Source of the DNA: a virus
Taxonomy: Duplodnaviria; Caudoviricetes
Length of the DNA: 64,000 bases
IMG/VR virus record: IMGVR_UViG_3300050491_000011
Direction: 5' to 3' (one strand)
In this document: positions 4,210 through 55,450 of the stretch, piece by piece
How positions within the stretch are numbered: position 1 is the first letter of the stretch
How the letters are laid out: every line of letters begins with the position of its first letter
Program-made: the position numbers and the translations under genes
The notes under the pieces: generated by a model
What the model saw: only the letters and a program-made list of their open reading frames with translations
Told to the model about the DNA's origin: nothing
Database searches by the model: none

Positions 4210-4613
4210 AACTCGGAAGGGGAACACCGCGTTCTCTGATCGTGGATATCGATAACGAATTCCACGAAGCTCTGGTACGTTTGGGCGATCATGTCCCTTC
4301 GTACGAGCGAAACCAGTTCATCCAGTACACCGCTAGCATTCTGTTGATGTCGTTGTTGATGTGCGATAGGGATGGTGCAGTCGATGCATTCGAACGCATT
4401 ACCTCTCTTGCACACATCGATGACCAGAAGAAGCATGCGACTATCTGGGGTGAGTTCTTAGCGTTAGCCAACTACTTCCACAGCCACTACTACCATCATG
4501 ACGAATTGATAAGGGATCTTGAAGACATGATCCCTAAGAACCCGAAGGAATTCGCGGAGCTTATATTCGAGGTAGAGGTTGCTGAGAAGGGTGGTTATCT
4601 GAAGGTGAGTTGA
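4206..4613 (+). CDS. Hypothetical protein, array member (LIVDIDN motif)
   Basis: ATGA start/stop coupling with the previous gene. Confidence 0.75.
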   Translation: MKLGRGTPRSLIVDIDNEFHEALVRLGDHVPSYERNQFIQYTASILLMSLLMCDRDGAVDAFERITSLAHIDDQKKHATIWGEFLALANYFHSHYYHHDELIRDLEDMIPKNPKEFAELIFEVEVAEKGGYLKVS

Positions 4614-5051
4614 ATGACTACAAACCGTGACTCGATTCGGATCATTGCTGAGATCGACGGACACGGCAGCCAGTGCTTATTCAATATCGCTGATGACTTG
4701 CAGAAGATGCCAGACTTTGAAGGTGAAAGCCTCGATTATCTGGCATCTCTGGTTCTCAGTTCGATTGTTGACTATTGGTGTCTAGCGGAGATGGACGAAC
4801 TGTCCTACATCCTAGGCGCCTGCGATGAGTACGATGATGTTGAAATAGGTCGTCGGGCTAAACGCGCACTAATGGATCTGTCGAAAGCCGATCTTATCGA
4901 TTTCCCGGATTTCTATAACACCAAGCTAACTCTGGTTGAGATAGCGCAAGAGCAGGAGAAGAAAGGTTGGAAGAAGTACAGGTTCACTGAGCCTGAAGTT
5001 AACCCCAACCGGAAGTTCTTCGTTGTCTGGATGGAATACCTCGAAGATTAG
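4614..5051 (+). CDS. Hypothetical protein, array member (RIIAEID)
   Basis: Starts immediately after the previous stop; AAGGTG SD. Confidence 0.75.
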   Translation: MTTNRDSIRIIAEIDGHGSQCLFNIADDLQKMPDFEGESLDYLASLVLSSIVDYWCLAEMDELSYILGACDEYDDVEIGRRAKRALMDLSKADLIDFPDFYNTKLTLVEIAQEQEKKGWKKYRFTEPEVNPNRKFFVVWMEYLED

Positions 5052-5060
5052 GGAGGTCAG

Positions 5061-5378
5061 ATGTTGGAAACAGAACAATTTGTTATCGAGATAAATCCTA
5101 ACCACGGCGTATCTGACTCCGCCGTGGGTTTTATGCTGTCTAACTGGGTATTGGACTCCGCTGCCCGTAAGGAATGGCTGAGTACGGAAGTGCTGGTTAC
5201 CCTCACCCATGACTACAACCTCAACCTTAAAACCATTGAGAAGATGTCTGGTGATGTACTGGATGCCTTGGAGGACTGCGGGTTATATGCGCAACTGATG
5301 ACCGACGATCGCAGGCTTAGCTCAGTAACATGTAGGGTTAAGCGCGATGTGGCATTAATTGATCTGGAGTGGACATGA
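5061..5378 (+). CDS. Hypothetical protein, array member (QFVIEIN)
   Basis: GGAGG SD before the ATG. Confidence 0.75.
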   Translation: MLETEQFVIEINPNHGVSDSAVGFMLSNWVLDSAARKEWLSTEVLVTLTHDYNLNLKTIEKMSGDVLDALEDCGLYAQLMTDDRRLSSVTCRVKRDVALIDLEWT

Positions 5379-5746
5379 AAGCAAATACGTTACCAGCTGT
5401 CGCCAACAAAACGATGATCGCTGTTCACAACGACTCACTCAACAGCTTCATTAATACCGAGGATCTATCAGAACACGTCAAGGTTCTATCAGGGATCGCG
5501 TTTGATTTCGTAGCAGCGATGCCAATCTGTCAATATGTTTATAACTGGCCGCCTGCTGAAATCATCCTCGATCGCTGCACCGGGAAGTCAAAGCTTTCCA
5601 CGTTATACAACGCTTTGTTCGATGAACTGTCTGAGAACGGATACCCAGTGTCTGTCCTTATGACCATGCAGGTTGTCCAACATGTCCCGAAACGATATAC
5701 CTTGCTTTCCGTACCACTCGCGTCGCGCCTCGGGAGCCTCCACTGA
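5375..5746 (+). CDS. Hypothetical protein
   Basis: ATGA coupling at 5375 with GGAG SD (track start 5369). Confidence 0.7.
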   Translation: MKANTLPAVANKTMIAVHNDSLNSFINTEDLSEHVKVLSGIAFDFVAAMPICQYVYNWPPAEIILDRCTGKSKLSTLYNALFDELSENGYPVSVLMTMQVVQHVPKRYTLLSVPLASRLGSLH

Positions 5747-6110
5747 TAAGGAGTTCATCGTTGTAGATATTAGCGACCTTGTTCGTGAGTTCTGCAATGA
5801 TGTCGACAGGCAGGTGGAAAGTCTCTCGTACGACATCGAAGGCATCATCAGACAGTATTCGGCTTACCGCCATGTAGGACGGTATGATGAGATCGTAACA
5901 GGTCTGTCAAACAAGTTCCTAGAGCTAGGTTGCGTAAAAGTTGAAGATGATGCGCCAATAATAGCAAGAGCTGCCCTCACGTTGTATCGTGCTATCACCG
6001 ACCATATTCGAGACTTAGAATACTTGGTCGGAGCAATCCACGATGTGAAGTTGAAGCTGAACAGTATCAACCGGCAGATAAGATGTAACGCAATCATGAT
6101 GGTTATCTAA
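5682..6110 (+). CDS. Hypothetical protein, array member (FIVVDISD motif)
   Basis: ATG 5682 with AGGT SD (track start 5673); overlaps the previous gene. Confidence 0.7.
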   Translation: MSRNDIPCFPYHSRRASGASTDKEFIVVDISDLVREFCNDVDRQVESLSYDIEGIIRQYSAYRHVGRYDEIVTGLSNKFLELGCVKVEDDAPIIARAALTLYRAITDHIRDLEYLVGAIHDVKLKLNSINRQIRCNAIMMVI

Positions 6111-6128
6111 CCAGTACGGAGCTGTTTC

Positions 6129-6494
6129 ATGAAAAACCACTGTATCGTAGGCTACAGTCCGGGGTTCTACGATTACCTGCAATCAGTGGGGTATCGTGAA
6201 GTCCCGGAACAAGTGTCAGCGGATGAACCGGACTCCCCTCTGGCCTCCATCGACACACAGTTCGTAAACTGGGAACGCGTTGAGTTCCTTGACTACCTGA
6301 CCAATTGCATGATCGGTATCGAGTCTATTGATCCGGATTATCGGGCTACCGTTGAAAGTCTCTATGAGGCTATTGATGACGATGATTTGAGACAACTGGT
6401 CGAAGAAGGTTCGATCGAAGATTTGATATTTAATGACCGAGGCTATTATCTGGCTCGGCTGGAGAGTGTAAATGCCCCTCAACGAATCTTTTAA
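6129..6494 (+). CDS. Acidic hypothetical protein
   Basis: GGAG SD; 121-aa ORF. Confidence 0.7.
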   Translation: MKNHCIVGYSPGFYDYLQSVGYREVPEQVSADEPDSPLASIDTQFVNWERVEFLDYLTNCMIGIESIDPDYRATVESLYEAIDDDDLRQLVEEGSIEDLIFNDRGYYLARLESVNAPQRIF

Positions 6495-6867
6495 AGGGAA
6501 GGTGCTCAGTTTCGAGCTGAGCTCTGGTATCCGGTATACGAACTACAAGCTGCTGGCCCTGCTCGATGTGGGGACGGTTGTAGCGGTGGGTTTCCAAGCA
6601 GCAGGGGAACATCACCAGAACTTCCCGTACATGCCAGCAGATACTCCAGATGACTTCACGGCGTATTCGTATGCCAAGTTCGTCGATCCGGAGAACAAGA
6701 TCCTGTACGTTGGCGTCCCGTGGATCAAGGAAGGTTCGATTACCGTCCTCGACAACGTCAACTACAACTGCCTGCTCCTGAACCCAACCGCTGCCGAGAT
6801 GGACACCTTCCGTTCAATCCTCGTGGCCTCTGGGTTCGAAGGACGATTCAAGCTCACCGTAGCCTGA
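6472..6867 (+). CDS. Conserved Chimalliviridae protein upstream of the DNA polymerase
   Basis: PDDFTAYSYAKF...GVPWIKEGSI motif recalled from the core gene preceding polB; synteny. Confidence 0.7.
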   Translation: MPLNESFKGKVLSFELSSGIRYTNYKLLALLDVGTVVAVGFQAAGEHHQNFPYMPADTPDDFTAYSYAKFVDPENKILYVGVPWIKEGSITVLDNVNYNCLLLNPTAAEMDTFRSILVASGFEGRFKLTVA

Positions 6868-6869
6868 TC

Positions 6870-6925
6870 ACGCACATCCGCCAGCCGAAAGGTTGGCGGA
6901 TGTGTAGCGTCTTTTTTTTGTTTTG
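6870..6925 (+). terminator. Rho-independent terminator
   Basis: Long stem CACATCCGCCAGCC-GAAA-GGTTGGCGGATGTG plus T tract. Confidence 0.85.
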
Positions 6926-6979
6926 TTGAAAGATACAAACCGTGCCAACAATACGTAGAGTACCTCAGAGGTTTGATTG

Positions 6980-9109
6980 ATGGCTAACGATAACCCGTTC
7001 CTCTTACCAGTAGAGGAATACAAACGTGACATCGATGTCAAGAAAGGCTATATCCAACAGGTAGCCAAGTATCTTTCACTTCAGCTTAAACTCCCTTACG
7101 AGAACACGCTGAAGTACGTCCTTAAGAAAGTAGCTAAGGGCGGCATGTTTGCATTCAAAGATCCTGCAATGCAGCAGTTGATCAAGAAGGCTCGCGGTCA
7201 CCGGGTAGAAGATGAAACCACCTTCCTCGGTTATATCGAAGAGATTCGTGAGTCCGGCCGTATCGTTTCCCCGTCGCTGGTGGTTTACGAACGCCCAGAA
7301 GTAGAACGTTCCGTTACAGCTGAATGGCTGGACGATAACATCGCGGCTCGTAAGAAGTCGAAGAAGGCGATGTTTGAGTTGAAGCAGATCGGTGAACTGA
7401 TGAAGTCTGCTCTTGCGGACTATGATCAGAACGCCCGTAAGATCCGTATCAACTCAGTTTCCGGTATGCGCGGCTTTGAAGGTAACCCAATCTTCTTGGC
7501 AACCGGTCACTCCAGTCTGACATCTATGTGTCGGGCAGCAGCGGGGTACGGTAACGCCACTGTTGAAAGGTTCATGGCGGGGTCGAAGCATTACCATACG
7601 CCAGAGATAGCCAAAGCCAACCTGACAGCCATTACGACTATTGAGCAACTAAGTCGTGTCCAGTTGGTGATCGATGAGTACAACCTCGTCTATCCAAACG
7701 TGGATGACGTGGTAGCAATGGTTAAGCGTTCTGCCGAATTGTACTGGGACATTCCTCACGAGATGGAATTGATCCGCGGTATGGCAGAAGGGATGACTCC
7801 ACTGGAACGTGCCACCGTCTGCTACTCGGGCGACATGTACCACTTGGCTAAGTTCAACCCAGAAGTTGTTCGTAACCTGATGGGTGAGATGATCGCCATT
7901 AATATCGATGACATGGAAGACGTTGATACTGACGCCATCCTCATGACTGTCGATACCACGGCCATCGCTTACATCAACGCCCTGTGTGCAAACATCCTGA
8001 AAGGTAGTACGCACAAGCTGGTTAAAGAGAACAACCCGGCAGGGTGGCAGACCATCGGTCGTACAGCACAACGCTTTAAAGAGGCGTCTGCGAAGTACGC
8101 AACCCTGATCACTAACCTATTTGCGCCTAAGCATCTTCCGCCGACTGTAGCCGCTCTCAAGGGCATTCAGCGCCGTGTATGTCTGGCAGCAGATACCGAC
8201 TCCTCCATCTTCAGTACTGAATACTGGGTTGAGTGGTACACCGGCAGCATGAAGCGTGGGGAAGTAGAGGACCGTATCTGGTATCTCGCCACCTACATGT
8301 CGTGCCAGTGCATTGCGCACAGTCTGGCAATGTTGTCGGCTAACGTTGGTGTGGAACGTTCGCAACTCTTCCGTCTGGCAATGAAGAACGAGTACGCCTT
8401 CCCGGTGTTTGCTCTGACCAACCTTGCTAAGCATTACTTCTCCTTCATGTCCATGCGGGAAGGTAACGTTTACGAAGAGAATGAACTGGAGATCAAAGGT
8501 GTGGAGCTGCGTGGTTCTACTGCGCCTAAGCACATCTTGAAGGCGGCTGAGGAGATGATGGAGAACATCGCTACTCACGTCAACGAAGGTCGGAAGATGA
8601 ATGCGGGTAAACTCCTGCGGTTCGTTGCTGATCACGAGATCGAAACCATCCAGTCCATTAAGCGTGGGGAATACAAATACCTACGTTCTGCTCAGATCAA
8701 GCCGGACAGTAACAAGATGCTTCACCACGAACTGTGGCAAGAAGTGTTTGCTCCTAAGTACGGTGAATCTGTAGCGCCACCGTATCCATGCGTAAAGATC
8801 ACTTCTGAGTTGTCTAACAAGACTAAGACTCAGGAATGGTTGGCGGGTATGGAAGATCAGGAGCTGGCCAAGCGTATGGCAGCGTGGATGATCAAGTGGA
8901 ATCGTAAAGAGATCACTACCTTCTATCTGCCGACCATGGTTATCAAGAATGGTGGTCTTCCAATCGAACTACAGGAAGCTGCAAACGTCCGGAAGTTGGC
9001 CTACCAGATCAACTCAGGCTTCTACCGGATCTTGGAGTCTACTGGCCTTCATTTGGTGGATCGTAACAACTACCGTCTCATCTACGACTTCTTGGGACTG
9101 ACAGCATGA
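6980..9109 (+). CDS. Split family-B DNA polymerase, part carrying motifs B and C (phiKZ gp50-like)
   Basis: Motif B RKIRINSVSG and motif C AADTDSSIF; no exonuclease motifs; ATG 6980 with GAGGT SD. Confidence 0.9.
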   Translation: MANDNPFLLPVEEYKRDIDVKKGYIQQVAKYLSLQLKLPYENTLKYVLKKVAKGGMFAFKDPAMQQLIKKARGHRVEDETTFLGYIEEIRESGRIVSPSLVVYERPEVERSVTAEWLDDNIAARKKSKKAMFELKQIGELMKSALADYDQNARKIRINSVSGMRGFEGNPIFLATGHSSLTSMCRAAAGYGNATVERFMAGSKHYHTPEIAKANLTAITTIEQLSRVQLVIDEYNLVYPNVDDVVAMVKRSAELYWDIPHEMELIRGMAEGMTPLERATVCYSGDMYHLAKFNPEVVRNLMGEMIAINIDDMEDVDTDAILMTVDTTAIAYINALCANILKGSTHKLVKENNPAGWQTIGRTAQRFKEASAKYATLITNLFAPKHLPPTVAALKGIQRRVCLAADTDSSIFSTEYWVEWYTGSMKRGEVEDRIWYLATYMSCQCIAHSLAMLSANVGVERSQLFRLAMKNEYAFPVFALTNLAKHYFSFMSMREGNVYEENELEIKGVELRGSTAPKHILKAAEEMMENIATHVNEGRKMNAGKLLRFVADHEIETIQSIKRGEYKYLRSAQIKPDSNKMLHHELWQEVFAPKYGESVAPPYPCVKITSELSNKTKTQEWLAGMEDQELAKRMAAWMIKWNRKEITTFYLPTMVIKNGGLPIELQEAANVRKLAYQINSGFYRILESTGLHLVDRNNYRLIYDFLGLTA

Positions 9110-9324
9110 GTGATATCGAATCTATTGACATGTTCTCTGCGAATACCCAGTTCCCAGAAGCTGGGGATATTTGTGAACGCTTCATGGTTCAGATCTTTGG
9201 ATCGGTTGCGAAGATCATGGATCATATTCGCGATGAGATCGTGCGTGGCGAGAAGGCGGTGATCGGCATTGTTCTTAACCGTAAGGGTACTTCCATCGAG
9301 GAGTTCTTGGGGGTGAGTGAATGA
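9106..9324 (+). CDS. Hypothetical protein
   Basis: ATGA coupling to the polB stop; 72 aa. Confidence 0.65.
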   Translation: MSDIESIDMFSANTQFPEAGDICERFMVQIFGSVAKIMDHIRDEIVRGEKAVIGIVLNRKGTSIEEFLGVSE

Positions 9325-9725
9325 GGCGGTACAGTGAACTACTGTTAAACAAACCTCTAGGTGATGGACCTAAGCCTCAGATCGATATGACCAAGGGCGG
9401 TCAGGGCTGGGTTCCTTGGCAGGCAGCGATGTACCCAGGTTCTAAGTTGTTCGAGTTGAAGGCTACCCACGGCCTTCCTCTCGATATAGCTGTGGACCGG
9501 GTCATCAATCTGGAGAAGCTTCGTATCGAATGGCCAAGCTTTATTGAAACGGCCAGGAAGAACGGGTGGTGGGATTACATGACGATCGAGGCTATGGAAG
9601 TAGCCCTGACGGATGCTGACGTAAACCGGTTGCTGCGGGATGAGATTATCCTTAGCGCCAAACAGTATATGTTGGCCAATCCAATCGATCTATCCACAGC
9701 TCTGGTCAGCAAGACAGGAGAGTAA
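9321..9725 (+). CDS. Small protein with an alanyl-tRNA-synthetase-like helical motif
   Basis: GSKLFELKATHGLPLDIA resembles AlaRS G-x-x-AFxLYDTYGFPxDLT; ATGA coupling. Confidence 0.6.
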   Translation: MRRYSELLLNKPLGDGPKPQIDMTKGGQGWVPWQAAMYPGSKLFELKATHGLPLDIAVDRVINLEKLRIEWPSFIETARKNGWWDYMTIEAMEVALTDADVNRLLRDEIILSAKQYMLANPIDLSTALVSKTGE

Positions 9726-9727
9726 CC

Positions 9728-9859
9728 ATGTTGATGAACGTCCTCTTGGGGCCTGACGGCTTACCAGCCATGTCACCAGTTCCCGGTGTAACTGAAGTGC
9801 CACCAGAGCCAGAAGTAGCCGAGGAACCTACCGAAGAAGTTGAACCGGTAGACGAGTAA
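9728..9859 (+). CDS. 43-aa Pro/Glu-rich small protein not in the ORF track
   Basis: MLMNVLLGPDGLPAMSPVPGVTEVPPEPEVAEEPTEEVEPVDE; AGGAG SD; fills the gap up to the terminator. Confidence 0.55.
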   Translation: MLMNVLLGPDGLPAMSPVPGVTEVPPEPEVAEEPTEEVEPVDE

Positions 9860-9862
9860 ACA

Positions 9863-9900
9863 GCATACAGAGCGGGGCAGTGCCCCGCTCTGCTTTATGC
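9863..9900. terminator. Bidirectional hairpin GCATA-CAGAGCGGGGC-AGT-GCCCCGCTCTG-...-TATGC between convergent genes
   Basis: Inverted repeat read directly. Confidence 0.8.
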
Positions 9901-10980
9901 CTTGGGCATGCGTTCTACAACCAGTCTCTGAAGCCGCTCATTCAAGAAAGAGGAGGCAGCTCCAGTAAGACCATTATCAAACGTCTTCTCTTCCTTGACT
10001 TGGATGAAGGTTCGTTTGAGGATGGTTGTTTCTGGGAGGATGCGGTCATATCCGCTCTTAGCAGCCAATGCCAACATCACCGCAACGGAATCCATCTTCT
10101 GCGCCATGAGTGCCCACTCTACTTGATAGGTAGGAGTCATGGATGGAAGACAAACGCTGTCGAGGTAGTTGCTGCCAAAGATAGTCGGAATAGAAGCCAT
10201 CATCTGCCCACCAGTCATTGCCTTACCCGATACCTTATTAAAGACATCAAAGATAATAGCCTGACCTTCAGCATTGACGGATGTCTGGCTGGATGGGAGG
10301 TTGGTCCTGACGCTACACTCTTCACGAATGTTTAGATCGACCATCAGCTTATTGAACAGAGCCACGTTCAAGTGACTCTTAACCATGTTCAGTAGAACTA
10401 CCTGAGTCAGGAAAGCTTCAATCAACTTGCCGGGGTTAGCTGCCTGCCACATCTTCCACTGTGCCGCTAATAGAGGAATGTCGATGTTGATGACAGCCAA
10501 GTCTGGCTTATCGATAGTGATGGAGTTCTTGACACCCAGCTCTACCATCGTCAGATCACTGATTGGATGGTTGACCACGGTTACTGCCTGAAGGTCCTTC
10601 CAACCACGCCACAGATCCATGACGGTGTAGGATTCATCCCGCGAATACAGGATGATCTCAGGACAACCCGGATAGAAGACGCCTTCTGTGAATAGGGTCC
10701 CTTTGCTGAAGCTGGAGGCAATCCCCAGACCTGAACACATTCGTCTGGCAGAGATCTCACAGTCAGACATGTACTTGACCAGATCCCCACTGAATTCCAC
10801 GTTGAGGCTGATCAGGATCTTGGACAATAAGTGAGAGCTGTCAACACGACCCGGATAACTGGTGCGCTCGGTTACGTACCGCTGGTAGTTCTCGTTAACC
10901 CGCCCACGCAGATAGTCCATCCGGGGGAAGGCAAACGGAGAATTCTCGAACCGTGTGGTTCTATTAAGTAGCTGATACAT
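9895..10980 (-). CDS. Conserved protein divergent from chimallin, probably virion-associated (phiKZ gp52-like position)
   Basis: 361-aa ORF; synteny with the chmA block. Confidence 0.6.
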   Translation of the reverse strand: MYQLLNRTTRFENSPFAFPRMDYLRGRVNENYQRYVTERTSYPGRVDSSHLLSKILISLNVEFSGDLVKYMSDCEISARRMCSGLGIASSFSKGTLFTEGVFYPGCPEIILYSRDESYTVMDLWRGWKDLQAVTVVNHPISDLTMVELGVKNSITIDKPDLAVINIDIPLLAAQWKMWQAANPGKLIEAFLTQVVLLNMVKSHLNVALFNKLMVDLNIREECSVRTNLPSSQTSVNAEGQAIIFDVFNKVSGKAMTGGQMMASIPTIFGSNYLDSVCLPSMTPTYQVEWALMAQKMDSVAVMLALAAKSGYDRILPETTILKRTFIQVKEEKTFDNGLTGAASSFLNERLQRLVVERMPKA

Positions 10981-11145
10981 TTCAATGCCCCGGATAGATG
11001 GTTGCGTAAAAAGTTACACATGTTCACTATTATATAGTAGATCCCTCGAAGACACTCGTAACCCGAGTGTCTCGACAGCGTCTGCTACCCCTGCACGCTG
11101 TTTAGAGTCATTTTATTTGGATCGCGACCAACTTATTTTGGATGA

Positions 11146-11215
11146 TACATTACCGTCTAGCATATAGAAACACGCTGATGGATTTGAATCTAAAAACATT
11201 ACAGGTATACATTAC
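11146..11215 (+). promoter_or_regulatory. Tandem TACATTAC motifs (11146-11153, 11208-11215; variant AACATTAC at 11195) upstream of chimallin
   Basis: Read directly in the AT-rich intergenic region; resembles the phiKZ early promoter. Confidence 0.6.
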
Positions 11216-11461
11216 CTTGATGAGTTTAACCATTAAAGATAAGGAACGTCGAATTGATCTAGGTAAAAAGTCACACAGCAACAGAATCTTAAGACCCGTA
11301 GCGTAAAGCCGATTAAGGTACATTCGGTTCAAGCCCGTGCTATTCACGACGGTGGGTATTGCCGGGAATCCCTGATAGCGATAAGGGTAAGAGTACCGTA
11401 ACGCCGTATTGGCACCATCGCAATAAATGTGTACACAAAAAATCTTTAGGAGAGCAGTACT

Positions 11462-13474
11462 GTGAGCAAAGAAAACGACGGCTTCGAAATGAAAGACGAA
11501 CCAACCACCCAACGCGCTGAAGCACCAGCTTCTGAGCGTCGCGAAGAACGCCGTGAAGAGCCACGCCGTGAAGAACGTAGCACCCGCCGTGATCGCGATG
11601 ATCGTGAAGAAGGCGAAGAACGTGCGTTCACAATTGCAGACATCGGCCGTACCCTGAACGTTCGTCCTTCGAGCGGTGGCCTGTCCGACGCAGCTCTGTC
11701 TGCTCTGATGACCGCGTTCGAGAAGAACAAGGCATTCGACAAACCGAACCTGCCTGATGCAATCAAGCGCGACCGTTTCAAAGTGATTCCGCTGGACGGC
11801 TCCCTGGCCAAGTCCTCGCTGAACTCGCTGCTGGTAACTCTGCCAATCGTCATCGGCGCTGGCAAGGCTACCCTGGTTTACGTTCTGACCATCGAACCAG
11901 CTGGCGGCCATGGCACTCGCAGCCAGGTCGATCGCGGTACGACCTACGACGCCATCGTCCTCCCTGAGGACCAACTGGCTACCAAGCCGTACAAACGCGC
12001 CATCGAAGATCAGGTCTCCGGCCTGAACAAAGATGCCAAGGTTGTGGTGATCGGTTCGCAAGTTCTGCTGTCGTCGGTTGTGGCGAAGCTGAACAAAGAA
12101 GAAAACAGCGCCGTCGTCGATCGTATCTTCGACAACGCCCTCGATGCACTGTGCGGCTATCGCGAAAACCTGGTCGACAAGGCCGGTGGTTCCCGCAACA
12201 GCGCATTCCGCATCAGCCCGAAAATGATCGGCCGCACCGGTCGTCTGGAAACCACCTGGAACTACAGTGGCCAGCCAGGCGAAGACAGCTCGGGTCAACC
12301 GATCCGTTCTGACTGCACCGGTAACCTGTTCTACAGCGAAGCCAGCAACGAAGACGACAACCAGTACGACCGTACCCCAATGGGCGAAATCCGTGCCGGT
12401 ATCGACCTCTTCCTGGCCGACAACCGTGAACAGCAGAACGGTCCTTCGTTCAGCCGTCGCCGCAAGTCGCAAGAAGATGGTGAACCGTTCATCCAAGCGG
12501 TATTGAACATCACCTCGATCGCGCCTGCTGCGAACTTCCCGTTCTCCCTGGAACTGGCGCTGCTGCTGTTGGCTCAGGCCAACCTGCAATCGAACGACTA
12601 CCGCTGGGCTTCCCAGCTGCGTCCTCGCACTGCAATCAGCAACCCAGACGGCACCGGCGTGATGAAGCCTACCAGCAACATCAACTGCCTGCACCTCTTG
12701 AATCCGAACCGCGACTTCGCCAAGATCTTCGACGACGTGTCTCCGAACATGGACGACAACGATCTGAGCGATTACCTCGCGTTCACCGTGTTCCCGAAAC
12801 TGGCGATCGGCATGATGATCCCATCTTCGGGCGAGAAGTCCTCGGTTCTGTCGATCTTCGAAAGCATCGCGACCACTCGCGATACCGACGTTGCTCGTCG
12901 CCACACCAAGACGCTGTTCGAAGCTGCCGACGTTCTGTCGGGTAACCGCTTCAGCCGCGCCTACAAGGACCTGGCTGGTTCCGTCGACGTAGCTCCAGTT
13001 CGTTCGATGGGTACTCGTCAACTGATCGGTACTTGGGTCGACACTCAGGGCAACCTGCGTGACCTGCGTGAATGGAACGTCCAGTCTCTCCTCACCGAAG
13101 TTGGCGAGAAGAACATCGATCTGGTGCAGGACTTCCAGTACACCTACGAAAACGACCGCAACACCGTGGACTTCTGCCTGGCAGAACGTCTGGGCTACCT
13201 CCAGAAGGTTGTTCCGGGCATCCGCGTTACCACCACTGCACCGCTGCTGGGCTTCGAGCCTGACTTCCTGGAAGCGCTGTCGCGTTCCCTGGACGCAGCT
13301 GACATGTCGAGCTACATGACTGCCGAAGGCGGTCTGAACACTCGTCGTCACGTTGGTGGCAGCGCCTACTCGCAGCTGGCAACTTCCGACATCGGCATCA
13401 GCCGTCGTCGTGGTTCCGACCGTACCACTGCCGATCGTGGCCGTGGCGGTCTGTTCGACTCGATCGACTACTAA
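11462..13474 (+). CDS. chmA: Chimallin, major phage-nucleus shell protein
   Basis: 670 aa with strong codon bias, immediately upstream of the nvRNAP beta' N-terminal gene as in phiKZ gp54 and 201phi2-1 gp105; disordered termini; own terminator. Confidence 0.85.
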   Translation: MSKENDGFEMKDEPTTQRAEAPASERREERREEPRREERSTRRDRDDREEGEERAFTIADIGRTLNVRPSSGGLSDAALSALMTAFEKNKAFDKPNLPDAIKRDRFKVIPLDGSLAKSSLNSLLVTLPIVIGAGKATLVYVLTIEPAGGHGTRSQVDRGTTYDAIVLPEDQLATKPYKRAIEDQVSGLNKDAKVVVIGSQVLLSSVVAKLNKEENSAVVDRIFDNALDALCGYRENLVDKAGGSRNSAFRISPKMIGRTGRLETTWNYSGQPGEDSSGQPIRSDCTGNLFYSEASNEDDNQYDRTPMGEIRAGIDLFLADNREQQNGPSFSRRRKSQEDGEPFIQAVLNITSIAPAANFPFSLELALLLLAQANLQSNDYRWASQLRPRTAISNPDGTGVMKPTSNINCLHLLNPNRDFAKIFDDVSPNMDDNDLSDYLAFTVFPKLAIGMMIPSSGEKSSVLSIFESIATTRDTDVARRHTKTLFEAADVLSGNRFSRAYKDLAGSVDVAPVRSMGTRQLIGTWVDTQGNLRDLREWNVQSLLTEVGEKNIDLVQDFQYTYENDRNTVDFCLAERLGYLQKVVPGIRVTTTAPLLGFEPDFLEALSRSLDAADMSSYMTAEGGLNTRRHVGGSAYSQLATSDIGISRRRGSDRTTADRGRGGLFDSIDY

Positions 13475-13498
13475 GTCGGCAGATGCGGTAAACTGACA

Positions 13499-13540
13499 CG
13501 GGAGGAGGGGTTACCCCTCCTCCTGTTTCTTTTTTCTTTA
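13499..13540 (+). terminator. Rho-independent terminator after chmA
   Basis: GGAGGAGGGG-TTAC-CCCTCCTCC plus T tract. Confidence 0.85.
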
Positions 13541-13555
13541 TCTGCGAGAAGTGCC

Positions 13556-15046
13556 ATGGATTTGATTAATTACGATATCTACGAGCCACGTCAGCGTTAT
13601 CCGGGGCGGAAGGGTATCTATCCGATGATTGAAGACTTCGACAAGATGTTCAAGAACTTGAGCATTAAGCCGATGTTAGCAAACGATCTGGATCTCGAAA
13701 CAGATGAAGGTAAGCAGAAGTTCAACGATCTGGTCTACACTAAGTACGACGGGGATGTATTCTCGAACGTGCCATCGTGCCCATGCCGTAAGACTTCCGG
13801 TGGTAGCCGTATTCATGACAACTGCATTCACTGTGGTTATGAAGTTCTGCCGATCACTGAACAGACGATCGAACCTATCGTCTGGGTAATGGCGCCCCCA
13901 GAAGTTCCTGGGTTCATCAACTTGACAATCTACCGGTTGCTCAAGGCCAGATTCACCAAGTCCTCATTCAGCGTCTTCGACTACATCCTTGATCCAAAGT
14001 ACCGCCCTCCTAAGCTTAACAGCAAAGAAGAGCGTCTTATTGAAGCGATCGTACCTACTCGTGGGTTGGTCTACTTCCATAAGAACTTCGATGAGATCAT
14101 GTCCAAGTTGTGCGCAATCAGGCACTTCGTAACAGCGGCCAAAGCTGCTAGCACGATGCGATTCATCGATCTACACAAACACCTGATCTTCTGTCGTTAC
14201 ATGCCGTTCCCATCCAAGATTGGTTTCATCGTCGAAGATGTGGGCGACCGTACGTATGTCGATCCAAAGATGGCGCCCGCACTGGATGCGCTCATCTGTC
14301 TTGGCAAGGTAGCATCGGCCAAGCGCATCTCGCTGTACGATCTTGAATCCCGGATCGCACGGTCAAGCAATAAGCTCTGCACCTATTACTCTGGTAACGA
14401 GCATCTCAAAATCTTTGACAAGAAAGGAGTATTGCGAAAACTGGTTTACGGTGTATCCCCGCACTTTACCTTCCGGACGGTGATTACCTCGAACCACAAA
14501 CCTCACGATCACGAGTCTCTCGAGATTCCATGGGGTTCCGCTGTTCTGACGTTTAAGCTACACATCGCGAACAAGCTACGGAAGGAGAAGTATACTCCTA
14601 ACGAAATCTTGACGCTGATCTACGATAACGTCCTCCGCACACACCACCGCATTGAGAAGATCTTCGACGAGCTGATCGCCGAGTCTCCGGGTGGACGTGG
14701 GATGATGGCAGGCTTTACGCGGTTTCCATCGCTTAAGCGTGGTTCTACGCAAGGCTTCTATATCGACACGATCAAACGTGACCCTACCCAATTGAGTACA
14801 TCCATCTCTGTGTTGACGCTTGTAGCGCCTAACGCCGACTTCGATGGTGACTACATGTCTGGACAATTGGCACTGGATAACGTGACTACACGGGCTTTCG
14901 AGCGCCTGAAACCAAGTACTGGGTTCATGGATCTCAAGAAGGTCTTCGGAGTGAGCAACCACGCCAACATACCGGCGCCGGTGATCTCAACTATCAACGC
15001 ACGTATTGAGGAAGGAAACGACCTATCAGTACCCATGGGAGATTGA
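13556..15046 (+). CDS. Non-virion RNA polymerase beta' N-terminal subunit (phiKZ gp55-like)
   Basis: Catalytic NADFDGD motif; N-terminal zinc-binding CPC...CIHC; uninterrupted ORF. Confidence 0.92.
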   Translation: MDLINYDIYEPRQRYPGRKGIYPMIEDFDKMFKNLSIKPMLANDLDLETDEGKQKFNDLVYTKYDGDVFSNVPSCPCRKTSGGSRIHDNCIHCGYEVLPITEQTIEPIVWVMAPPEVPGFINLTIYRLLKARFTKSSFSVFDYILDPKYRPPKLNSKEERLIEAIVPTRGLVYFHKNFDEIMSKLCAIRHFVTAAKAASTMRFIDLHKHLIFCRYMPFPSKIGFIVEDVGDRTYVDPKMAPALDALICLGKVASAKRISLYDLESRIARSSNKLCTYYSGNEHLKIFDKKGVLRKLVYGVSPHFTFRTVITSNHKPHDHESLEIPWGSAVLTFKLHIANKLRKEKYTPNEILTLIYDNVLRTHHRIEKIFDELIAESPGGRGMMAGFTRFPSLKRGSTQGFYIDTIKRDPTQLSTSISVLTLVAPNADFDGDYMSGQLALDNVTTRAFERLKPSTGFMDLKKVFGVSNHANIPAPVISTINARIEEGNDLSVPMGD

Positions 15047-37568: not shown

Positions 37569-38048
37569 ATGCGTAATAATAATTCCGAGCGATTCGTTGC
37601 TCACGGAAACTCGATCGAAGCTACTAATGCTGAAGTTGAGAAAGAAGTTCAGGGTTATCAGGATACTTTGGCCGTCAGTCTGAATGCTGCGATTCAGCCA
37701 GTAAAAGACCTCGCCGAGTCCATCAACGTATTGCATGCCGAAGGTCGTCAAGAGGACGTGCCTAAATTGACCGGCCTGGTGAAGATGCTCGCTCGTGACG
37801 CTGACGTCTTGATTGCCGAGAAGAAAGTGGTTGATGAGGAACTGGCCAAGCTTCAGGCTAATCCACCAACCAAGAAGCGCCATCTGTCGAACCACCACGC
37901 CGGCCTGATGGCTGCTGGTGCTAAGTACCTCGGTCTGTCCCAGCGTGCGACGAACACCGTAGGTAACATCCTCGGCGATTACATGGATTTGATCGATCCG
38001 CTCAAATCTAAACCTGAAACCGCAGAACAAAGTGAGGCTGTATCGTGA
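37569..38048 (+). CDS. Coiled-coil hypothetical protein
   Basis: GAGAGGT SD; first gene of a three-ORF operon. Confidence 0.75.
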   Translation: MRNNNSERFVAHGNSIEATNAEVEKEVQGYQDTLAVSLNAAIQPVKDLAESINVLHAEGRQEDVPKLTGLVKMLARDADVLIAEKKVVDEELAKLQANPPTKKRHLSNHHAGLMAAGAKYLGLSQRATNTVGNILGDYMDLIDPLKSKPETAEQSEAVS

Positions 38049-39889
38049 GTGACGAACAGATCGTAGATCAACCTGAAGAAGAACGCCCGGTCGTATTGGA
38101 AGAGCAGATCTCCAAACCGGCTGAGTTCACTCCGACTCCTGCTGAAGAGCCTGTAGATCTCAGCGAGCCTCAGTGGCAAGCGATCGATGAACTACCATCG
38201 GGCTTCGCTCACGAGCCAGCACATGAGCATCCAGCGCAAGAAGCTGAAGCTCTGGGTGACCTGATGGCCGCGCTTCCTGTCAGTGAGCAGATCGTCGATC
38301 TGTCCGTACCGACTCCGGAAGCTGACCCTACGCCAACTCGCGAAATGATCGGCGACTACACGCCGAACATGAACGTCAATGACGATCAGGGTATCTTGAC
38401 CGTATTGACCGACGAACAACTGGCGAAGTTCTCTCGCGACAATCCGTCCGTTCTGCTGTCCAACTTCTCGGCTTCCGAACTGGACGTCATGTACGACCAG
38501 ATCGAGCGTCAAGTAGCAGCCGCTCAAGCATCTCGTGAAGAACTCGTGAAGAACGGCGGTGGTGCCGGTCTCTACGCTGGCCGTACTGACGATGGCGAAG
38601 TGATCTACATCACCGTCAACGAAGGTAAGGCGATGGGTGCGATTGACGACTATCGCAAAACCACCGCCCCATACCGCGACAACGATGATCTCTTCGGCGA
38701 CGACAGCGAATGGACCAACCTGCCTAAGGTCGGTGATACTCCGATTGCTCCTGGCCGTCTGGACCACGAGAAGTCGAAAGACCCGGTCATGCGTATCCGT
38801 GGTCGTCTGGGTATGGCTGTTGAATACACCAACCCGTTCTGGGCGTCAGGCCTACACATGGTTATCGAAGGCGCTGGTGCGCTGGAAGAACTCTCTCTGG
38901 ATCAGAAGATCCTGACTGAGAAAGCCGAGATGGGTCGTGACAGCAGCGGTTATGTCTACAGTGCTTCGGCTCTGTACCTGAACCGTCCTGTGGTTGACTT
39001 CGCTCTGAGTCAAGTGCGTAGCACCACCATCGGTACTACTGATCCGCAAGTGCTGAAGAGCCTCCTGCTGATTACTGATATCGATCCGCTGGCGCTGGCC
39101 ATGGCTTCTGCCAACATGCCTAACGGCTTCCTGCTGGAACGTCCTTGCCTGGAACAGATCGGCGGTTGCGGTTACGTTACCAAGCGTCAGGTGAACCTGC
39201 GCCGTATGCTGATGGTTCGTCGTTCGAAGTTGTCGGATGACCAAGCTCAGTTCATGAGCAAGCGTGCTGGTACTGTTGACATCAAGACTGTTCTCGGCTA
39301 CCAAGCCAAGATGCGTCCTGAGATCAGCCGTATCGTCCAACTGAAAGGCGGCATGATCCTGCGCTTCAAGGTTCCTACCATCGCTGAATACGAGCGTATC
39401 GCTTCGGCATGGCTGGACTACATGGATCAGCAGTCCCGTAAGGTTGCTGCCAGCAATGCTAACCAGCAAGAGCGTGAAGCGTTCCTGTTGAAGGCATCTC
39501 GTGTCTCCGTTCTGATGGCCTACGGTCACTGGATCGAAGCTATCCTCGAAACCAACCCTGACGATCTGGCTGCTGAGCCTAAAGTAATGATCGAACGCGT
39601 TGGCGAAGAAGGTAGTCCTGAGCAGTACCAGTCTGACGTTCAAATGCAGCGTCTGTTGGTATCTCTGGCTGTCGATCAGGATCTGAGCGATCAGATCATC
39701 GAAGAGCTCAGCGAGTTCATCAACCAGATGACCATGTCTACACCGGTTATCCCGAAGATGAAGTGCCCGAACTGCGGTAAACAGATGCACGGCGACGATG
39801 CTTCGAAGCATCCACACCTTGTAAACCTGAACGCCGTAGAAGTTTTTTTTACCCTACTCCGCCTCAGAATGCAAAAGCTGTCAAGCTAA
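38045..39889 (+). CDS. Putative tail/baseplate assembly chaperone (T4 gp26/gp51-like, G part)
   Basis: Two Cys motifs (PC...GGCG and CPNCG); acidic Pro-rich N-terminus; ends just after a T8 slippery run. Confidence 0.55.
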   Translation: MSDEQIVDQPEEERPVVLEEQISKPAEFTPTPAEEPVDLSEPQWQAIDELPSGFAHEPAHEHPAQEAEALGDLMAALPVSEQIVDLSVPTPEADPTPTREMIGDYTPNMNVNDDQGILTVLTDEQLAKFSRDNPSVLLSNFSASELDVMYDQIERQVAAAQASREELVKNGGGAGLYAGRTDDGEVIYITVNEGKAMGAIDDYRKTTAPYRDNDDLFGDDSEWTNLPKVGDTPIAPGRLDHEKSKDPVMRIRGRLGMAVEYTNPFWASGLHMVIEGAGALEELSLDQKILTEKAEMGRDSSGYVYSASALYLNRPVVDFALSQVRSTTIGTTDPQVLKSLLLITDIDPLALAMASANMPNGFLLERPCLEQIGGCGYVTKRQVNLRRMLMVRRSKLSDDQAQFMSKRAGTVDIKTVLGYQAKMRPEISRIVQLKGGMILRFKVPTIAEYERIASAWLDYMDQQSRKVAASNANQQEREAFLLKASRVSVLMAYGHWIEAILETNPDDLAAEPKVMIERVGEEGSPEQYQSDVQMQRLLVSLAVDQDLSDQIIEELSEFINQMTMSTPVIPKMKCPNCGKQMHGDDASKHPHLVNLNAVEVFFTLLRLRMQKLSS

Positions 39890-51788: not shown

Positions 51789-52300
51789 GCAACCTCGTAT
51801 ATACACACCGTGGCTTCCCATGCGTGATGGATATCGAGATTTCCCAAGGGGCTGTTTACGAAGCCCCTGAGGTCAGCACGATCTATCGTGAACGCATGCA
51901 GCAAACTCGCCCTGGGTTTGAAGTCGAACTCGATCAGGTTGAAATGCTATTAGGTGAGTGGACTCGTACTGGTGGCTTCTTCACCCCGAGTCTGCACCCG
52001 TCGGTACGTCTGAGCGGCTCTGTGCAGTCGTTCATTGCCGAGACAGCGCTCTTCCTGACCAAGCGTATCACTCGCCGTCGCGTCAGCTTCCAAGACCGCG
52101 GTATGCTGATGAAGCAAGACATCGCTGTGGCCACACGTCTCCCAACCTTCACTGATGACGAGCGTGCGGCATTGACTGAACTCTCTGGTATGAAACCAGA
52201 AGTTCTGATCCAGTTCTGGATCACCCGGCTGGGCCTGGACGATCTGTCTTGCTCCATGCAGTTGTATGTAGGTGACCGTTCCAATTCGGACATGATGTAA
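51785..52300 (+). CDS. Small virion protein
   Basis: ATGA coupling inside the head operon. Confidence 0.6.
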   Translation: MSNLVYTHRGFPCVMDIEISQGAVYEAPEVSTIYRERMQQTRPGFEVELDQVEMLLGEWTRTGGFFTPSLHPSVRLSGSVQSFIAETALFLTKRITRRRVSFQDRGMLMKQDIAVATRLPTFTDDERAALTELSGMKPEVLIQFWITRLGLDDLSCSMQLYVGDRSNSDMM

Positions 52301-52358
52301 TAATGTGCGTATACGCCGTCGGTTGCGCACCGACGATTAATATCCCTAGGAGTTTCAC

Positions 52359-53696
52359 ATGAGCAAATCTCTGCACGCAGCCCTTCTTCAATACGGCGTC
52401 GAATCCGGCGAGATCGAGCCAGAAGAAGTGATCTACCCGGCCGGTGAAGAAGAAATCACCGTCATCACCGACGAAACCATGTCGGACCTGGAAGAAGCCG
52501 TTGCCGAACTGGCCGACGACGTCGAAAAGGTTGAAGACCACGAAAACGGCGCCGAAAAGGTGATCGAGGCTGTTGAATCCCTGGAAGCCTACGTTGTTCA
52601 GTTCGAACGTCTGGGCGAAGCCGGCATCAGCATCAACACCACCGCGGCCAACTTCGCGCTGCAAGGCATCGTCGCTTCCCTGGAAGGCCGCAACATTCCT
52701 GCCGCCGTCTACAGCACCGAAGCCTTCGCGCTGCAAGAGTCGTTCGAAGCTGACGACAAAGAAGCCGACAAAGGTCCTGGCCTGCTGGGCAAGGGTAAAG
52801 CCCTGCTGACCAAGCTGTGGAACATGTTGAAAGCCGCTGCTGGCGCTGTGAAGCAAGCCATCATCGACTTCTTCGCCACCATGGGCAAATCCGCTGCCGC
52901 CATCAAGGCCGGCGGTGAGAAGCTGAAGCGTGTTGGCGCATCGATCAAAGACAGCAAAACTGTCTCCCTGAAAGGTGGCTCGTATAGCGCTCTGACCGTT
53001 GGCGGTTCGGTTGATCCGATCAAGGCAATGGGTGACGTTAATAGCGGCTACAAGACCGCTGTTGTTGACAACATCACCAAGCTGCGCATCGTGGTTAACC
53101 CACTGGTGAAAGCTCTGCGCAACCCAACTCCAGGCGGCGTCAAGTCGGCTGCTGAAGGTATCGACGTCAAGTCGCTGGCTTCCGCAAGCGCTTCCCTGCC
53201 AGGCGGCTTCGTTGCTCACTTCACCGTTGGTTCGGGTGAAGGCGTTGCAGCTCTGACCGGCACTACCTTCAAGATCGAGAAGACCAAAGGCGGCGAAGCT
53301 GCTAAGGACTTCAACGCTCTGTCCGGTGGTGACATCGTCAAGCTGGGTACTGCTGTTGTTGCCACTGCTGACCTGATGGTCAAAGCCAAGTCCGACGCTG
53401 ACGCCATCATCAAGTCGAACGACGAGCTGCTGTCGGCCGCTACCACCGCGATCAACGCTGCCAAGGACGACGAAGCTCAGGGCGCTGCTCGCGAGCTGCT
53501 GAAGACCGCTACCAAGCTGATGTCCGTTACCAAGGGCTTCGTACCTACCTACGTTCGCTACATGGCTACCACTGCCAAGGTTGCGTACAAAGCTGGTATG
53601 GCCTCGGCTTCGGCTCACGGCAAGAAAGACAAAGCTGAAGACGGCGCGGCTGATAAGCCAGCTGACCCAAAGCTGCTGAAAAACGAGGACAAGTAA
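52359..53696 (+). CDS. phiKZ-type internal head protein (gp93/95/97-like family)
   Basis: Acidic propeptide with GVE, SLE, STE and SFE sites; Ala/Lys-rich mature part; very strong codon bias. Confidence 0.8.
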   Translation: MSKSLHAALLQYGVESGEIEPEEVIYPAGEEEITVITDETMSDLEEAVAELADDVEKVEDHENGAEKVIEAVESLEAYVVQFERLGEAGISINTTAANFALQGIVASLEGRNIPAAVYSTEAFALQESFEADDKEADKGPGLLGKGKALLTKLWNMLKAAAGAVKQAIIDFFATMGKSAAAIKAGGEKLKRVGASIKDSKTVSLKGGSYSALTVGGSVDPIKAMGDVNSGYKTAVVDNITKLRIVVNPLVKALRNPTPGGVKSAAEGIDVKSLASASASLPGGFVAHFTVGSGEGVAALTGTTFKIEKTKGGEAAKDFNALSGGDIVKLGTAVVATADLMVKAKSDADAIIKSNDELLSAATTAINAAKDDEAQGAARELLKTATKLMSVTKGFVPTYVRYMATTAKVAYKAGMASASAHGKKDKAEDGAADKPADPKLLKNEDK

Positions 53697-54034
53697 AATC
53701 CGCCGAGGACGCTCCGGCGTCCGTCACCTCGAACGTTGAAAAGTTCGTTAAAGAAGGTGACTTGGACCACATTCGTACAGCTCTACGTTTGGAGCTGAAC
53801 AATGCGAAGTTGTCCTCGAAGGATTTCGTTGAGATGGTTAAGTGGGTGAAGGCCAACGTCAAAGGGTTGTTCGTACCTTACGATGAAGGTTCCTTCGCCA
53901 GGGAGATGAAAGAGAGTAAGTCGGATTGGGACGAGGACTACTTCCATATGCAAGTAGTCTACCTGAAAACCAACTTCTCTGAAAAGCGTCTCCAACACCT
54001 CATCCGTGTTAACGAGCACTTGTCGAAGAAGTGA
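53666..54034 (+). CDS. -1 frame C-terminal extension of the upstream head protein (track ORF 53762-54034)
   Basis: Frame opens at the C CCA AAG heptamer; no ATG/GTG/TTG before 53762; protein-like sequence continues upstream of that TTG. Confidence 0.6.
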   Translation, partial: PKAAEKRGQVKSAEDAPASVTSNVEKFVKEGDLDHIRTALRLELNNAKLSSKDFVEMVKWVKANVKGLFVPYDEGSFAREMKESKSDWDEDYFHMQVVYLKTNFSEKRLQHLIRVNEHLSKK

Positions 54035-54048
54035 TCTAATCGCTTCTA

Positions 54049-54082
54049 GTATAGCGGGGGTGGAAACACCCCCGTTCTATGC
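54049..54082 (+). terminator. Hairpin GTATAG-CGGGGGTG-GAAA-CACCCCCG-TTCTATGC
   Basis: Placed after 54034, not after 53696, so the extension lies inside the transcript. Confidence 0.75.
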
Positions 54083-54142
54083 CGCGTTTATGATATAGCT
54101 TCCGCTATCAACACCATCCTACTTGTGCAACGGGTGATAACA

Positions 54143-55450
54143 ATGACACGGTTCTCCGACGAATTCAAACAGTCGATGCTTGGCGACGGTTCTTTCGAAT
54201 CCGCCATCGTCGATGAAAGCGCTTACCAAGAAACAGGCATCACTCCTGAGCTGGTTATCCAGACTCAAGAAGAACGTGCAGAGCTCGCTGATGCTCTGGA
54301 TCAGGTTGATGAAATCGGTGATGACCGTAAAGACATCGACGCTGCCGCTGCTGTAACTGACGCTGTTGTATCGGCAGTAAGCGCTGCTGAAACCATGCCC
54401 GCTGCTGCATCGGAAACCTTCGCTGAGATTGCGAACGTAACCATCGCTTCGGCTGCTCAAGTGCTGGACATGGAAATGCCTCGTCTCGAGACTGATCCAC
54501 ACACCGGCGCTATCACCGAAGCATCCATGGAAAGCTTCAGCAGCTGGTTCTCCGGCGCTGCCAAGTCCTTCATGGAAGCCAGTGCGAACTTCTTTGCTCG
54601 TATCGGTCTGGGTATCTCCCGTCTGAACGACAGCTCCCAAGGTCTGACTAAGCGCTGCATGCGCGTTCGTACCGTGATGGGTGATCGTAAAGGCAACGGC
54701 GGTAAGCCAATCAAGCTGAGCTCCGGCGTGCAGCGCCATCTGGTGCTGGGTGATGGTTATGCCTCCAGTCCTATCGAAGCTCTCACCGAGTTCTCGGTTA
54801 CCAACATCAGCGTTACTCGTGTAATCAACGAGTACCACAAGCGTCTGGGTGATCTGATCAAGGATCGTATCTTCGCAGCTGTTGCGTCTGGTCAGAAGAA
54901 CGACATCTTCGTTGACCTGAAGAGTTCCGACCTGCTGGAAGATCTCGAGAAGATCCTCGGCCGTCAGCCGAAGAACCTGATGGGTAACCAGATCTACGGG
55001 TTCAACGATCGCCCTGTCAACAAGGTGCTGACCGTAACCCTGCAATCGGGCATGCCTAACGCCATCGACCTGATCCGTCACCTCGATGCTCCGAACTCTC
55101 TGAGCAACGAACAGATCAGCGCGATGCTGGGTTCTCTGGAAGGTTTGATCGCTGAGCAACTGATTGCTCTCGAGAAGATCACCAGTCAGTCCAAGGCTTC
55201 GTTCAAGTCCCTGCAAGACGTGATCAAGAAGTTCAACGGCATGGCTGAAGAAGCTGAGATCGCTCAGCTCAAAGCCGGCGGCGCTGAAGCACCTGTTGCC
55301 ATCAACTCGATGGAACTGCTGCGCGTCGAGAACCAACTGGTTTCCGAACTCGGCCGCGTCTGCGACCGTCTGGTTGATTACCAGCGTGACATGATCGACC
55401 GTATCGACTCGTTGTTGACTTTGGTCGAAGAGTCGGTCTTCCAAGACTGA
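54143..55450 (+). CDS. phiKZ-type internal head protein paralogue
   Basis: SFE and ASME-SFSSWF maturation motifs; ATG 54143 (track start 54125). Confidence 0.75.
   Translation: MTRFSDEFKQSMLGDGSFESAIVDESAYQETGITPELVIQTQEERAELADALDQVDEIGDDRKDIDAAAAVTDAVVSAVSAAETMPAAASETFAEIANVTIASAAQVLDMEMPRLETDPHTGAITEASMESFSSWFSGAAKSFMEASANFFARIGLGISRLNDSSQGLTKRCMRVRTVMGDRKGNGGKPIKLSSGVQRHLVLGDGYASSPIEALTEFSVTNISVTRVINEYHKRLGDLIKDRIFAAVASGQKNDIFVDLKSSDLLEDLEKILGRQPKNLMGNQIYGFNDRPVNKVLTVTLQSGMPNAIDLIRHLDAPNSLSNEQISAMLGSLEGLIAEQLIALEKITSQSKASFKSLQDVIKKFNGMAEEAEIAQLKAGGAEAPVAINSMELLRVENQLVSELGRVCDRLVDYQRDMIDRIDSLLTLVEESVFQD

Follow-up and report, generated by a model that had tools for sequence, protein, structure and literature searches.

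A gene for an internal head protein (IP) of a giant, phiKZ-like tailed phage very probably gives rise to two products: the 445-residue IP itself and, through a -1 ribosomal slip at the heptamer C CCA AAG close to its end, a 558-residue fusion that would deliver an additional, host-like domain. The gene lies on the plus strand at 52359..53696 of a stretch of 64,000 nucleotides (hereafter the window) from IMG/VR virus record IMGVR_UViG_3300050491_000011 (Duplodnaviria; Caudoviricetes), a contig of 188 kb estimated to be 75% complete. The idea of a -1 frameshift at this place came from a preliminary description of the sequence, and it is supported here by the conservation of the arrangement across eight lineages, by in-frame fusions of the same two parts in other phages, by coding sequence that runs ahead of any start codon, and by an independent contig that shows no indel at the site.

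The open reading frame (ORF) of the IP ends in GAC CCA AAG CTG CTG AAA AAC GAG GAC AAG TAA. Within this end, C CCA AAG (53666..53672) forms an X XXY YYZ heptamer that is in register with the zero frame; it lies where the two frames overlap, 21 nt 5' of the TAA (53694..53696) that closes the short form. A TGA in the -1 frame (53663..53665) abuts the heptamer on its 5' side and sets the upstream limit for any shift. From 53666, the -1 frame stays open for 122 codons (the ORF translation P0001) to a TGA at 54032..54034, the end of the long form. With base 53672 read twice, the predicted trans-frame product has 438 + 120 = 558 residues and the junction ...KPADPK-AAEKRG.... What follows the junction is a linker (AAEKRGQVKSAEDAPASVTS; 53672..53728) and then a five-helix domain, delimited by its AlphaFold2 model and its homologues to residues 22-122 of P0001 (53729..54031). 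The preliminary description had the end of the IP ORF, the heptamer, the opening of the -1 frame and the two product lengths all correct. The IP gene has a canonical start, its ATG being preceded at a spacing of 6 nt by a Shine-Dalgarno sequence, TAGGAG (52347..52352), read directly; this contrasts with the downstream frame, which has no usable start signal. A scan from the IP stop to the domain found no promoter and no plus-strand terminator, and a search of 53400-54200 against Rfam gave no match.

The heptamer and the -1 relation are both conserved in related phages. In all eight lineages where the domain is out of frame with the upstream IP gene (the window included), it lies in the -1 frame, and in seven of these eight a perfect slippery heptamer of the NNA-AAG/AAC type stands in the frame overlap, at differing positions. 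The site is G GGA AAC directly before a TGA in L003 (likewise L004 and L005) and in L011; G GGA AAG GAA TAA in L012 (likewise L013 and L014); G GGA AAG, 15 nt before a TGA, in L016 (likewise L017); C CCA AAG CCG TAA in L018; and A AAA AAG TAA in L022. The sets L012/L013/L014 and L016/L017 come from separate runs and are identical in arrangement within each set. The lineages are diverse: the IP of the window is 33% identical to that of L003, L016 and L018 have a different, Cys-containing IP tail, the IP of L022 has 558 residues, and the linkers differ in both length and sequence. Together, the overlaps sum to approximately 108 codons, in which about 0.08 heptamers are predicted from the background of the window and about 0.4 from a uniform random model, against the seven observed.

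The rarity of such sites is also evident within the window. Its 55 long ORFs, 19,333 codons in total, contain 14 in-frame X XXY YYZ heptamers, only four of which are X XXA AAN. Where the -1 frame of a heptamer was measured, it is long at two sites only, the IP site (122 codons) and a run of seven T's at 39844 (174 codons); behind the two other A-AAG heptamers, at 56481 and 58983, it lasts for 19 and 15 codons. The combination of a heptamer and a long -1 frame at the IP end exceeds chance. As a separate observation, the TTTTTTT run at 39844 is found 12 codons before the stop of a 614-residue ORF (38045-39889), with its -1 frame extending to 40368, and is a candidate for a second frameshift site in the window.

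A search among 1.84 billion representative proteins returned 232 homologues of P0001 at E<=1e-3, which fall into three architectures. Bacterial proteins of about 290-300 residues have two copies of the domain in tandem and end in a transmembrane helix; a single copy, in frame, stands at the extreme C-terminus of at least 17 proteins of 333-585 residues; and the remainder are short ORFs of 67-109 residues. Inspection of the surrounding DNA showed that the short ORFs are always gene-caller truncations of a frame that runs upstream into the end of an IP gene. Eleven of the longer in-frame proteins were scanned against Pfam, and nine match the phiKZ_IP family PF12699 above its cut-off (e.g., P0025, 574 residues, E 7.5e-51, and P0076, 549 residues, E 6.3e-46). 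The layout recurs in two shorter proteins, from Kosakonia phage Kc263 and Edwardsiella phage pEt-SU, of which only that of pEt-SU passes the PF12699 cut-off. An assignment of DUF1993 to the Kc263 homologue was dropped, its 21.6 bits being under the cut-off of 23.4.

Two further arrangements of the domain were observed. In P0104 (536 residues) and P0125 (580 residues), it stands directly behind a segment that matches the first ~150 positions of the PF12699 profile, with further unannotated sequence on its C-terminal side, which suggests that the N-terminal part of the IP may serve as a portable packaging address for varied cargo. In a more distant, A+T-rich phage lineage (L019 at 2385-2500, also L020 and L021), the domain follows an IP-like gene of 370 residues in frame 0, behind a single TGA (GAA TGA AAG). 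This arrangement is common to the three assemblies, which are 92% identical, and the neighboring genes all end in TAA or TAG. The junction would be either a programmed TGA read-through or a sign that TGA is a sense codon in that genome.

In several relatives, the shift site is followed by a stable RNA hairpin. Hairpins are found 5-7 nt 3' of the heptamer in L011 (z -4.0, a value that none of 200 shuffles matched), L018 (z -3.7) and L003 (z -2.5); that of L012 lies 18 nt 3' of the heptamer (z -3.7). The hairpins of L003 (4067-4121) and L011 (1004-1058) differ in their inner stem by one compensatory pair, C-G versus A-U, and their 3' arm is encoded by a five-residue insertion, YKSGK, which lies between helix 1 and helix 2 and which, among the homologues, only these two possess. 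Because of this compensatory pair and the lineage-specific insertion, the comparison suggests that the RNA shape in L003 and L011 is itself under selection and has molded the protein sequence. For the window, minimum-free-energy folding gives a possible structure at 53684..53731, an outer helix CGAGG/CCTCG that encloses a GGACGC-TCCG-GCGTCC hairpin; this hairpin, already noticed in the preliminary description, was confirmed at 53707-53722. We saw no Shine-Dalgarno-like enhancer upstream of the heptamer in the window.

If the domain were instead a separate small gene, its translation would begin at a TTG or at a noncanonical codon, perhaps by ribosomes that terminate at the IP stop and reinitiate, and the heptamer would play no part. 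Gene callers do annotate such short ORFs in relatives (P0038, P0062, P0068, P0080, P0087), a CTG overlaps the TGA stop in L003, L011 and L016, and in the window the TTG at 53762..53764 (residue 33 of P0001) is preceded by the Shine-Dalgarno-like string GAAGGTG (53753-53759). This TTG is the sole conventional start in the -1 frame before the domain body, and the earlier judgment that its Shine-Dalgarno is badly spaced is confirmed: the string is only 2 nt away, and it coincides with conserved Glu-Gly codons. Moreover, initiation at the TTG would delete helix 1 (residues 22-30), whereas matches to homologues, both bacterial and phage, begin at residues 19-23 of P0001, and the motif S-x-N-L-x-K-F-V-x-E-G-D-L aligns in all lineages. 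The first usable start falls in a different alignment column in each lineage and removes the conserved helix 1 in most of them, and no start codon near the IP stops is common to the lineages, as termination-reinitiation might use. For L003 versus L011, counted from the base after the IP stop, the domain frame has a ratio of nonsynonymous to synonymous substitution (dN/dS) of 0.12, and the other two frames have 1.2 and 2.8; the start-less stretch is, on this comparison, under purifying selection. A separate gene also leaves aside the -1 relation in eight out of eight out-of-frame lineages and a number of heptamers in the overlaps far above background. We therefore regard it as improbable.

The two remaining alternatives place the frame change in the DNA or in the transcript. 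The window could contain a dead or misassembled in-frame fusion, in which a deletion of one nucleotide, real or due to assembly, left the downstream frame to decay. In-frame fusions of like architecture do exist in other phages, and the source record is a metagenome assembly. The preliminary description had itself raised the possibility of a one-nucleotide sequencing error. A contig from an unrelated anaerobic-digester metagenome, obtained in another study, spans 53590-53788 with three substitutions and no gap, and one of the substitutions is synonymous in the IP frame and alters the linker. The -1 relation recurs in eight lineages and many samples, the domain frame has no stops and the low dN/dS just mentioned, and a random deletion would neither create nor retain slippery heptamers at different positions; this explanation is very improbable. 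Slippage of RNA polymerase on a run of A's, rather than of the ribosome, finds some support in L022, whose site has six consecutive A's. In the window and in most relatives the site has three, and a polymerase needs a longer run than this to slip productively. Ribosomal slippage accords with the tandem X XXY YYZ register and with the hairpins 5-7 nt downstream, and we give the polymerase next to no weight.

The appended domain is predicted to fold compactly. The AlphaFold2 model, built on a 72-row alignment, has a mean predicted local distance difference test (pLDDT) of 91.2, with helices at residues 22-30, 33-44, 51-64, 90-102 and 106-121 of P0001, and shows the linker (residues 1-20; pLDDT 59-81) as unstructured, with low confidence. 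The model thus agrees with the earlier description of a linker plus a compact domain. The W-x3-Y...NFS-x2-R motif noticed at that time is real as well: R37, W88, Y92, Q96, N103, F104, R108 and H111 are invariant or nearly so across the 72 homologues. No Pfam, PHROG or PADLOC model corresponds to the domain, a profile search of the PDB gave nothing below E 0.1, and Foldseek against the PDB found no match at E<=0.001. A wide VIA-align search reached at best a Z of 6.4 over 57 residues, with generic helical or TPR-like rows below it, and no fold was assigned. Among AlphaFold DB clusters and BFVD, only uncharacterized bacterial membrane proteins and jumbo-phage fusions resemble the domain (AFDB cluster Q1QCA1, TM 0.80).

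The protein that would carry this domain belongs to the phiKZ-like internal head proteins, several of which are injected in phiKZ. The IP matches PF12699 with 65.7 bits (cut-off 27; E 5.6e-18) over profile positions 3-381 of 387, and also phrog_2497, annotated 'internal head protein'. The 188-kb record has six PF12699 matches, the IP included, and the IP sits with paralogues in a block of head genes; the other head genes of the record share 25-33% identity with their counterparts in phiKZ-like phages that infect Pseudomonas, E. coli (Goslar), Erwinia and others. Megablast and tblastn, run with the IP region on 50,697 phage records, returned no match and hence no closely related cultured phage. 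The phiKZ paralogues gp93, gp95 and gp97, members of PF12699, are processed by the prohead protease, and they are packaged and injected with the genome, as are C-terminal fluorescent fusions to paralogues of this type; the injected cargo co-localizes with host membrane lipid in the early infection vesicle (bioRxiv 10.1101/2024.03.24.586471). Since phiKZ IPs and their C-terminal fusions are packaged and injected, a domain at the C-terminus of the IP would be well placed for delivery at the onset of infection. The IP of the window likewise passes the curated PF12699 cut-off and lies in a head-gene block with paralogues; on the other hand, its homology to gp93, gp95 and gp97 is distant, and for these neither a frameshift nor an appended host-like domain is described. 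We also sought a conserved prohead-protease site of the form S/A/G-x-E in the linkers, and found S-A-E in the window and S-P-E in L012, with nothing comparable in L003, L011, L015 and L018; no such site is therefore assigned.

The closest bacterial relatives of the phage domain are 'hypothetical' proteins of Pseudomonas (syringae, gingeri, poae, viridiflava and others) and Paraburkholderia, in which it matches the second of the two tandem domains at 40-46% identity (E to 1e-31). In four Pseudomonas genomes (L025 at 4606-14168; L026-L028), the tandem-domain gene is part of a fixed operon consisting of a WYL regulator, two Dynamin_N proteins of 336 and 751 residues, the tandem-domain tail-anchored protein of 296 residues, a DUF87/HerA ATPase of 1097 residues whose gene overlaps the tandem-domain gene by 20 nt, an LHH nuclease of 195 residues and a SUKH immunity protein. 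The same dynamin-domain-HerA order is found at the metagenome loci L006 and L008. A likeness to small proteins encoded near dynamin-like GTPases had been suggested in the preliminary description, and this operon and the two metagenome loci verify it. The operon adjoins integrases and other mobile-element genes. Its only transmembrane segment is the helix at 272-296 of the 296-residue protein; the phage form has one copy of the domain, ends ...HLSKK and lacks the hydrophobic tail. In PADLOC 2023, the ATPase alone is matched (HerA/mad8), and the 751-residue dynamin-like and tandem-domain proteins match no model. The operon is a candidate for a new defense or toxin-delivery system.

Phylogenetic reconstruction places the phage domains with the second bacterial copy (support 99/97). 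Fourteen of the 18 phage rows form a single group with weak support, and this group contains frameshifted and in-frame forms side by side; P0060 (in frame), for instance, is sister to P0087 (-1). The IP-borne P0114 is nested inside bacterial sequences (100/98). At a minimum, the tree requires IP-borne copies to sit at two separate places among the domains of bacteria. Because P0114 is nested in this way, the tree points to at least one further independent capture of the domain. The phage domain would have been acquired from the second copy of the tail-anchored Pseudomonas/Paraburkholderia island protein, or would share recent ancestry with it. The phage and island proteins have the invariant residues R, W, Y, Q, NF, R and H in common, and they differ in that the latter have two copies and an anchor, whereas the phage has a single, unanchored copy on an IP. 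The repeated placements in the tree would be compatible with repeated capture and an arms race.

We propose that ribosomes translating the IP gene meet C CCA AAG seven codons before the stop, and that in some passages the P-site tRNA-Pro and the A-site tRNA-Lys slip one base back, from CCA to CCC and from AAG to AAA. Translation in the -1 frame would then add the linker of about 20 residues and the five-helix domain of about 100 residues, so that two products, the 445-residue IP and the 558-residue fusion, would be made in a ratio set by the frequency of the slip. In the long form, the domain would enter the capsid and, probably, the cell. There, the phage domain would most likely share the binding partner of the host domain and act as a decoy or a recruiter during DNA entry. 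Our leading guess, a speculative one, is that it competes for the partner of the host domain, either blunting the membrane-associated island system or recruiting membrane-remodeling proteins. A more specific version, in which the domain mimics in soluble form the anchoring subunit of the uncharacterized dynamin/HerA/LHH system of Pseudomonas and is preloaded in the capsid, dosed by frameshifting and injected to disarm or hijack that system, is tentative and on balance unlikely. If it were true, the host system would act at the membrane on DNA entry and would be disarmed before any phage gene is expressed.

Several points weigh against the proposal of a frameshifted, delivered fusion. The phage is uncultured and known from metagenomes alone, and we infer the occurrence and efficiency of the slip, the packaging and injection of the fusion and its molecular target. 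Our expectation of packaging and injection is carried over from phiKZ, whose paralogues are only distant relatives of this IP, and the appended domain has no known activity. The window shows no convincing stimulator: the fold downstream of the site in the window is no better than that of shuffled sequences (z -0.44), and its hairpin is 34 nt from the heptamer; the slip rate in the window may be low. L015 has no perfect heptamer. Its IP gene ends in GCA AAG TAA, and the A-AAG tetramer beside the stop codon is a plausible slip site. Finally, the lineages are related by descent and the counts are in part dependent: L003, L011 and L012, which end alike, may share one ancestral site. Because some sites may be inherited, we count at least four independent sites rather than seven; site position and type come in at least four distinct versions among the lineages.

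Other features surround the IP gene in the window. At 54055..54074, a G+C-rich hairpin with an 8-bp stem and a GAAA loop closes the IP-domain unit. A terminator after 54034 had been expected from the preliminary description; the hairpin is indeed there, whereas its T tail is weak and a consensus terminator scan did not flag it. It is probably the terminator of the unit, and a comparable hairpin followed by a T run is found 3' of the domain in L003. The next gene (54125-55450; 441 residues) has no Pfam match on its own, with a sub-threshold PF12699 score of 15.4 bits; the genes at the syntenic position in L012 and L015 carry a phiKZ_IP annotation, and it is therefore probably a diverged IP paralogue. 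On the minus strand, an ORF of 465 residues (52221-53618) spans the IP gene, is longer than the IP and has no family match. Codon bias is its most likely origin.

That phages use programmed frameshifting is textbook knowledge for tail chaperones and a few capsid proteins, and the mechanism is classical. In tailed phages, programmed -1 frameshifts reportedly add C-terminal extensions to structural or assembly proteins. Examples are the lambda G/GT tail chaperone, with the site G GGA AAG, the T7 capsid proteins 10A/10B, and the Ig-like domains of virion proteins. The IP arrangement resembles them in that the upstream ORF has an X XXY YYZ site close to its end, the downstream frame lacks a start signal, and the two products would share an N-terminus, in a ratio fixed by slip efficiency; the heptamer of L012 and L016 is that of lambda. 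It differs from them in its carrier, a phiKZ-type internal head protein that is packaged and probably ejected, rather than a tail chaperone or shell protein, and in that the extension is shared with a bacterial membrane protein. In E. coli, the gamma and tau products of dnaX depend on A AAA AAG with a downstream hairpin. The likeness to dnaX lies in the tRNA-Lys moving from AAG to AAA, in the heptamer of L022, which is identical, and in the relatives' hairpins 5-7 nt downstream. The difference is that the dnaX shift terminates almost at once and gives a shorter product, while here it would give one longer by 113 residues. As to function, T4 IPI* and P1 DarA/DarB are injected anti-defense head proteins. 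The IP fusion would share with them the concept of a capsid-preloaded protein that acts before phage gene expression; it has no sequence or fold similarity to them, and an anti-defense role for it is suggested only by the genomic context of the host homologue. In full-text searches of a literature library, we found no paper that joins programmed frameshifting with inner-body, PF12699 or Chimalliviridae proteins.

For a case built by computation, the comparative pattern is unusually clean, and the short 'hypothetical' ORFs that follow IP genes in these phages should be reannotated as frameshift extensions. Frameshifting in this IP family would set the copy number of a host-derived module that enters the cell together with the phage DNA. 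Several routes lead to one and the same domain: differing heptamers, possibly TGA read-through, and plain in-frame fusion. The operon of WYL, dynamin, dynamin, anchor, HerA, LHH and SUKH genes thereby appears as something that giant phages repeatedly copy from, and it is a concrete candidate for one of two things, an anti-phage system at the membrane or a host factor that helps to form the early infection vesicle.

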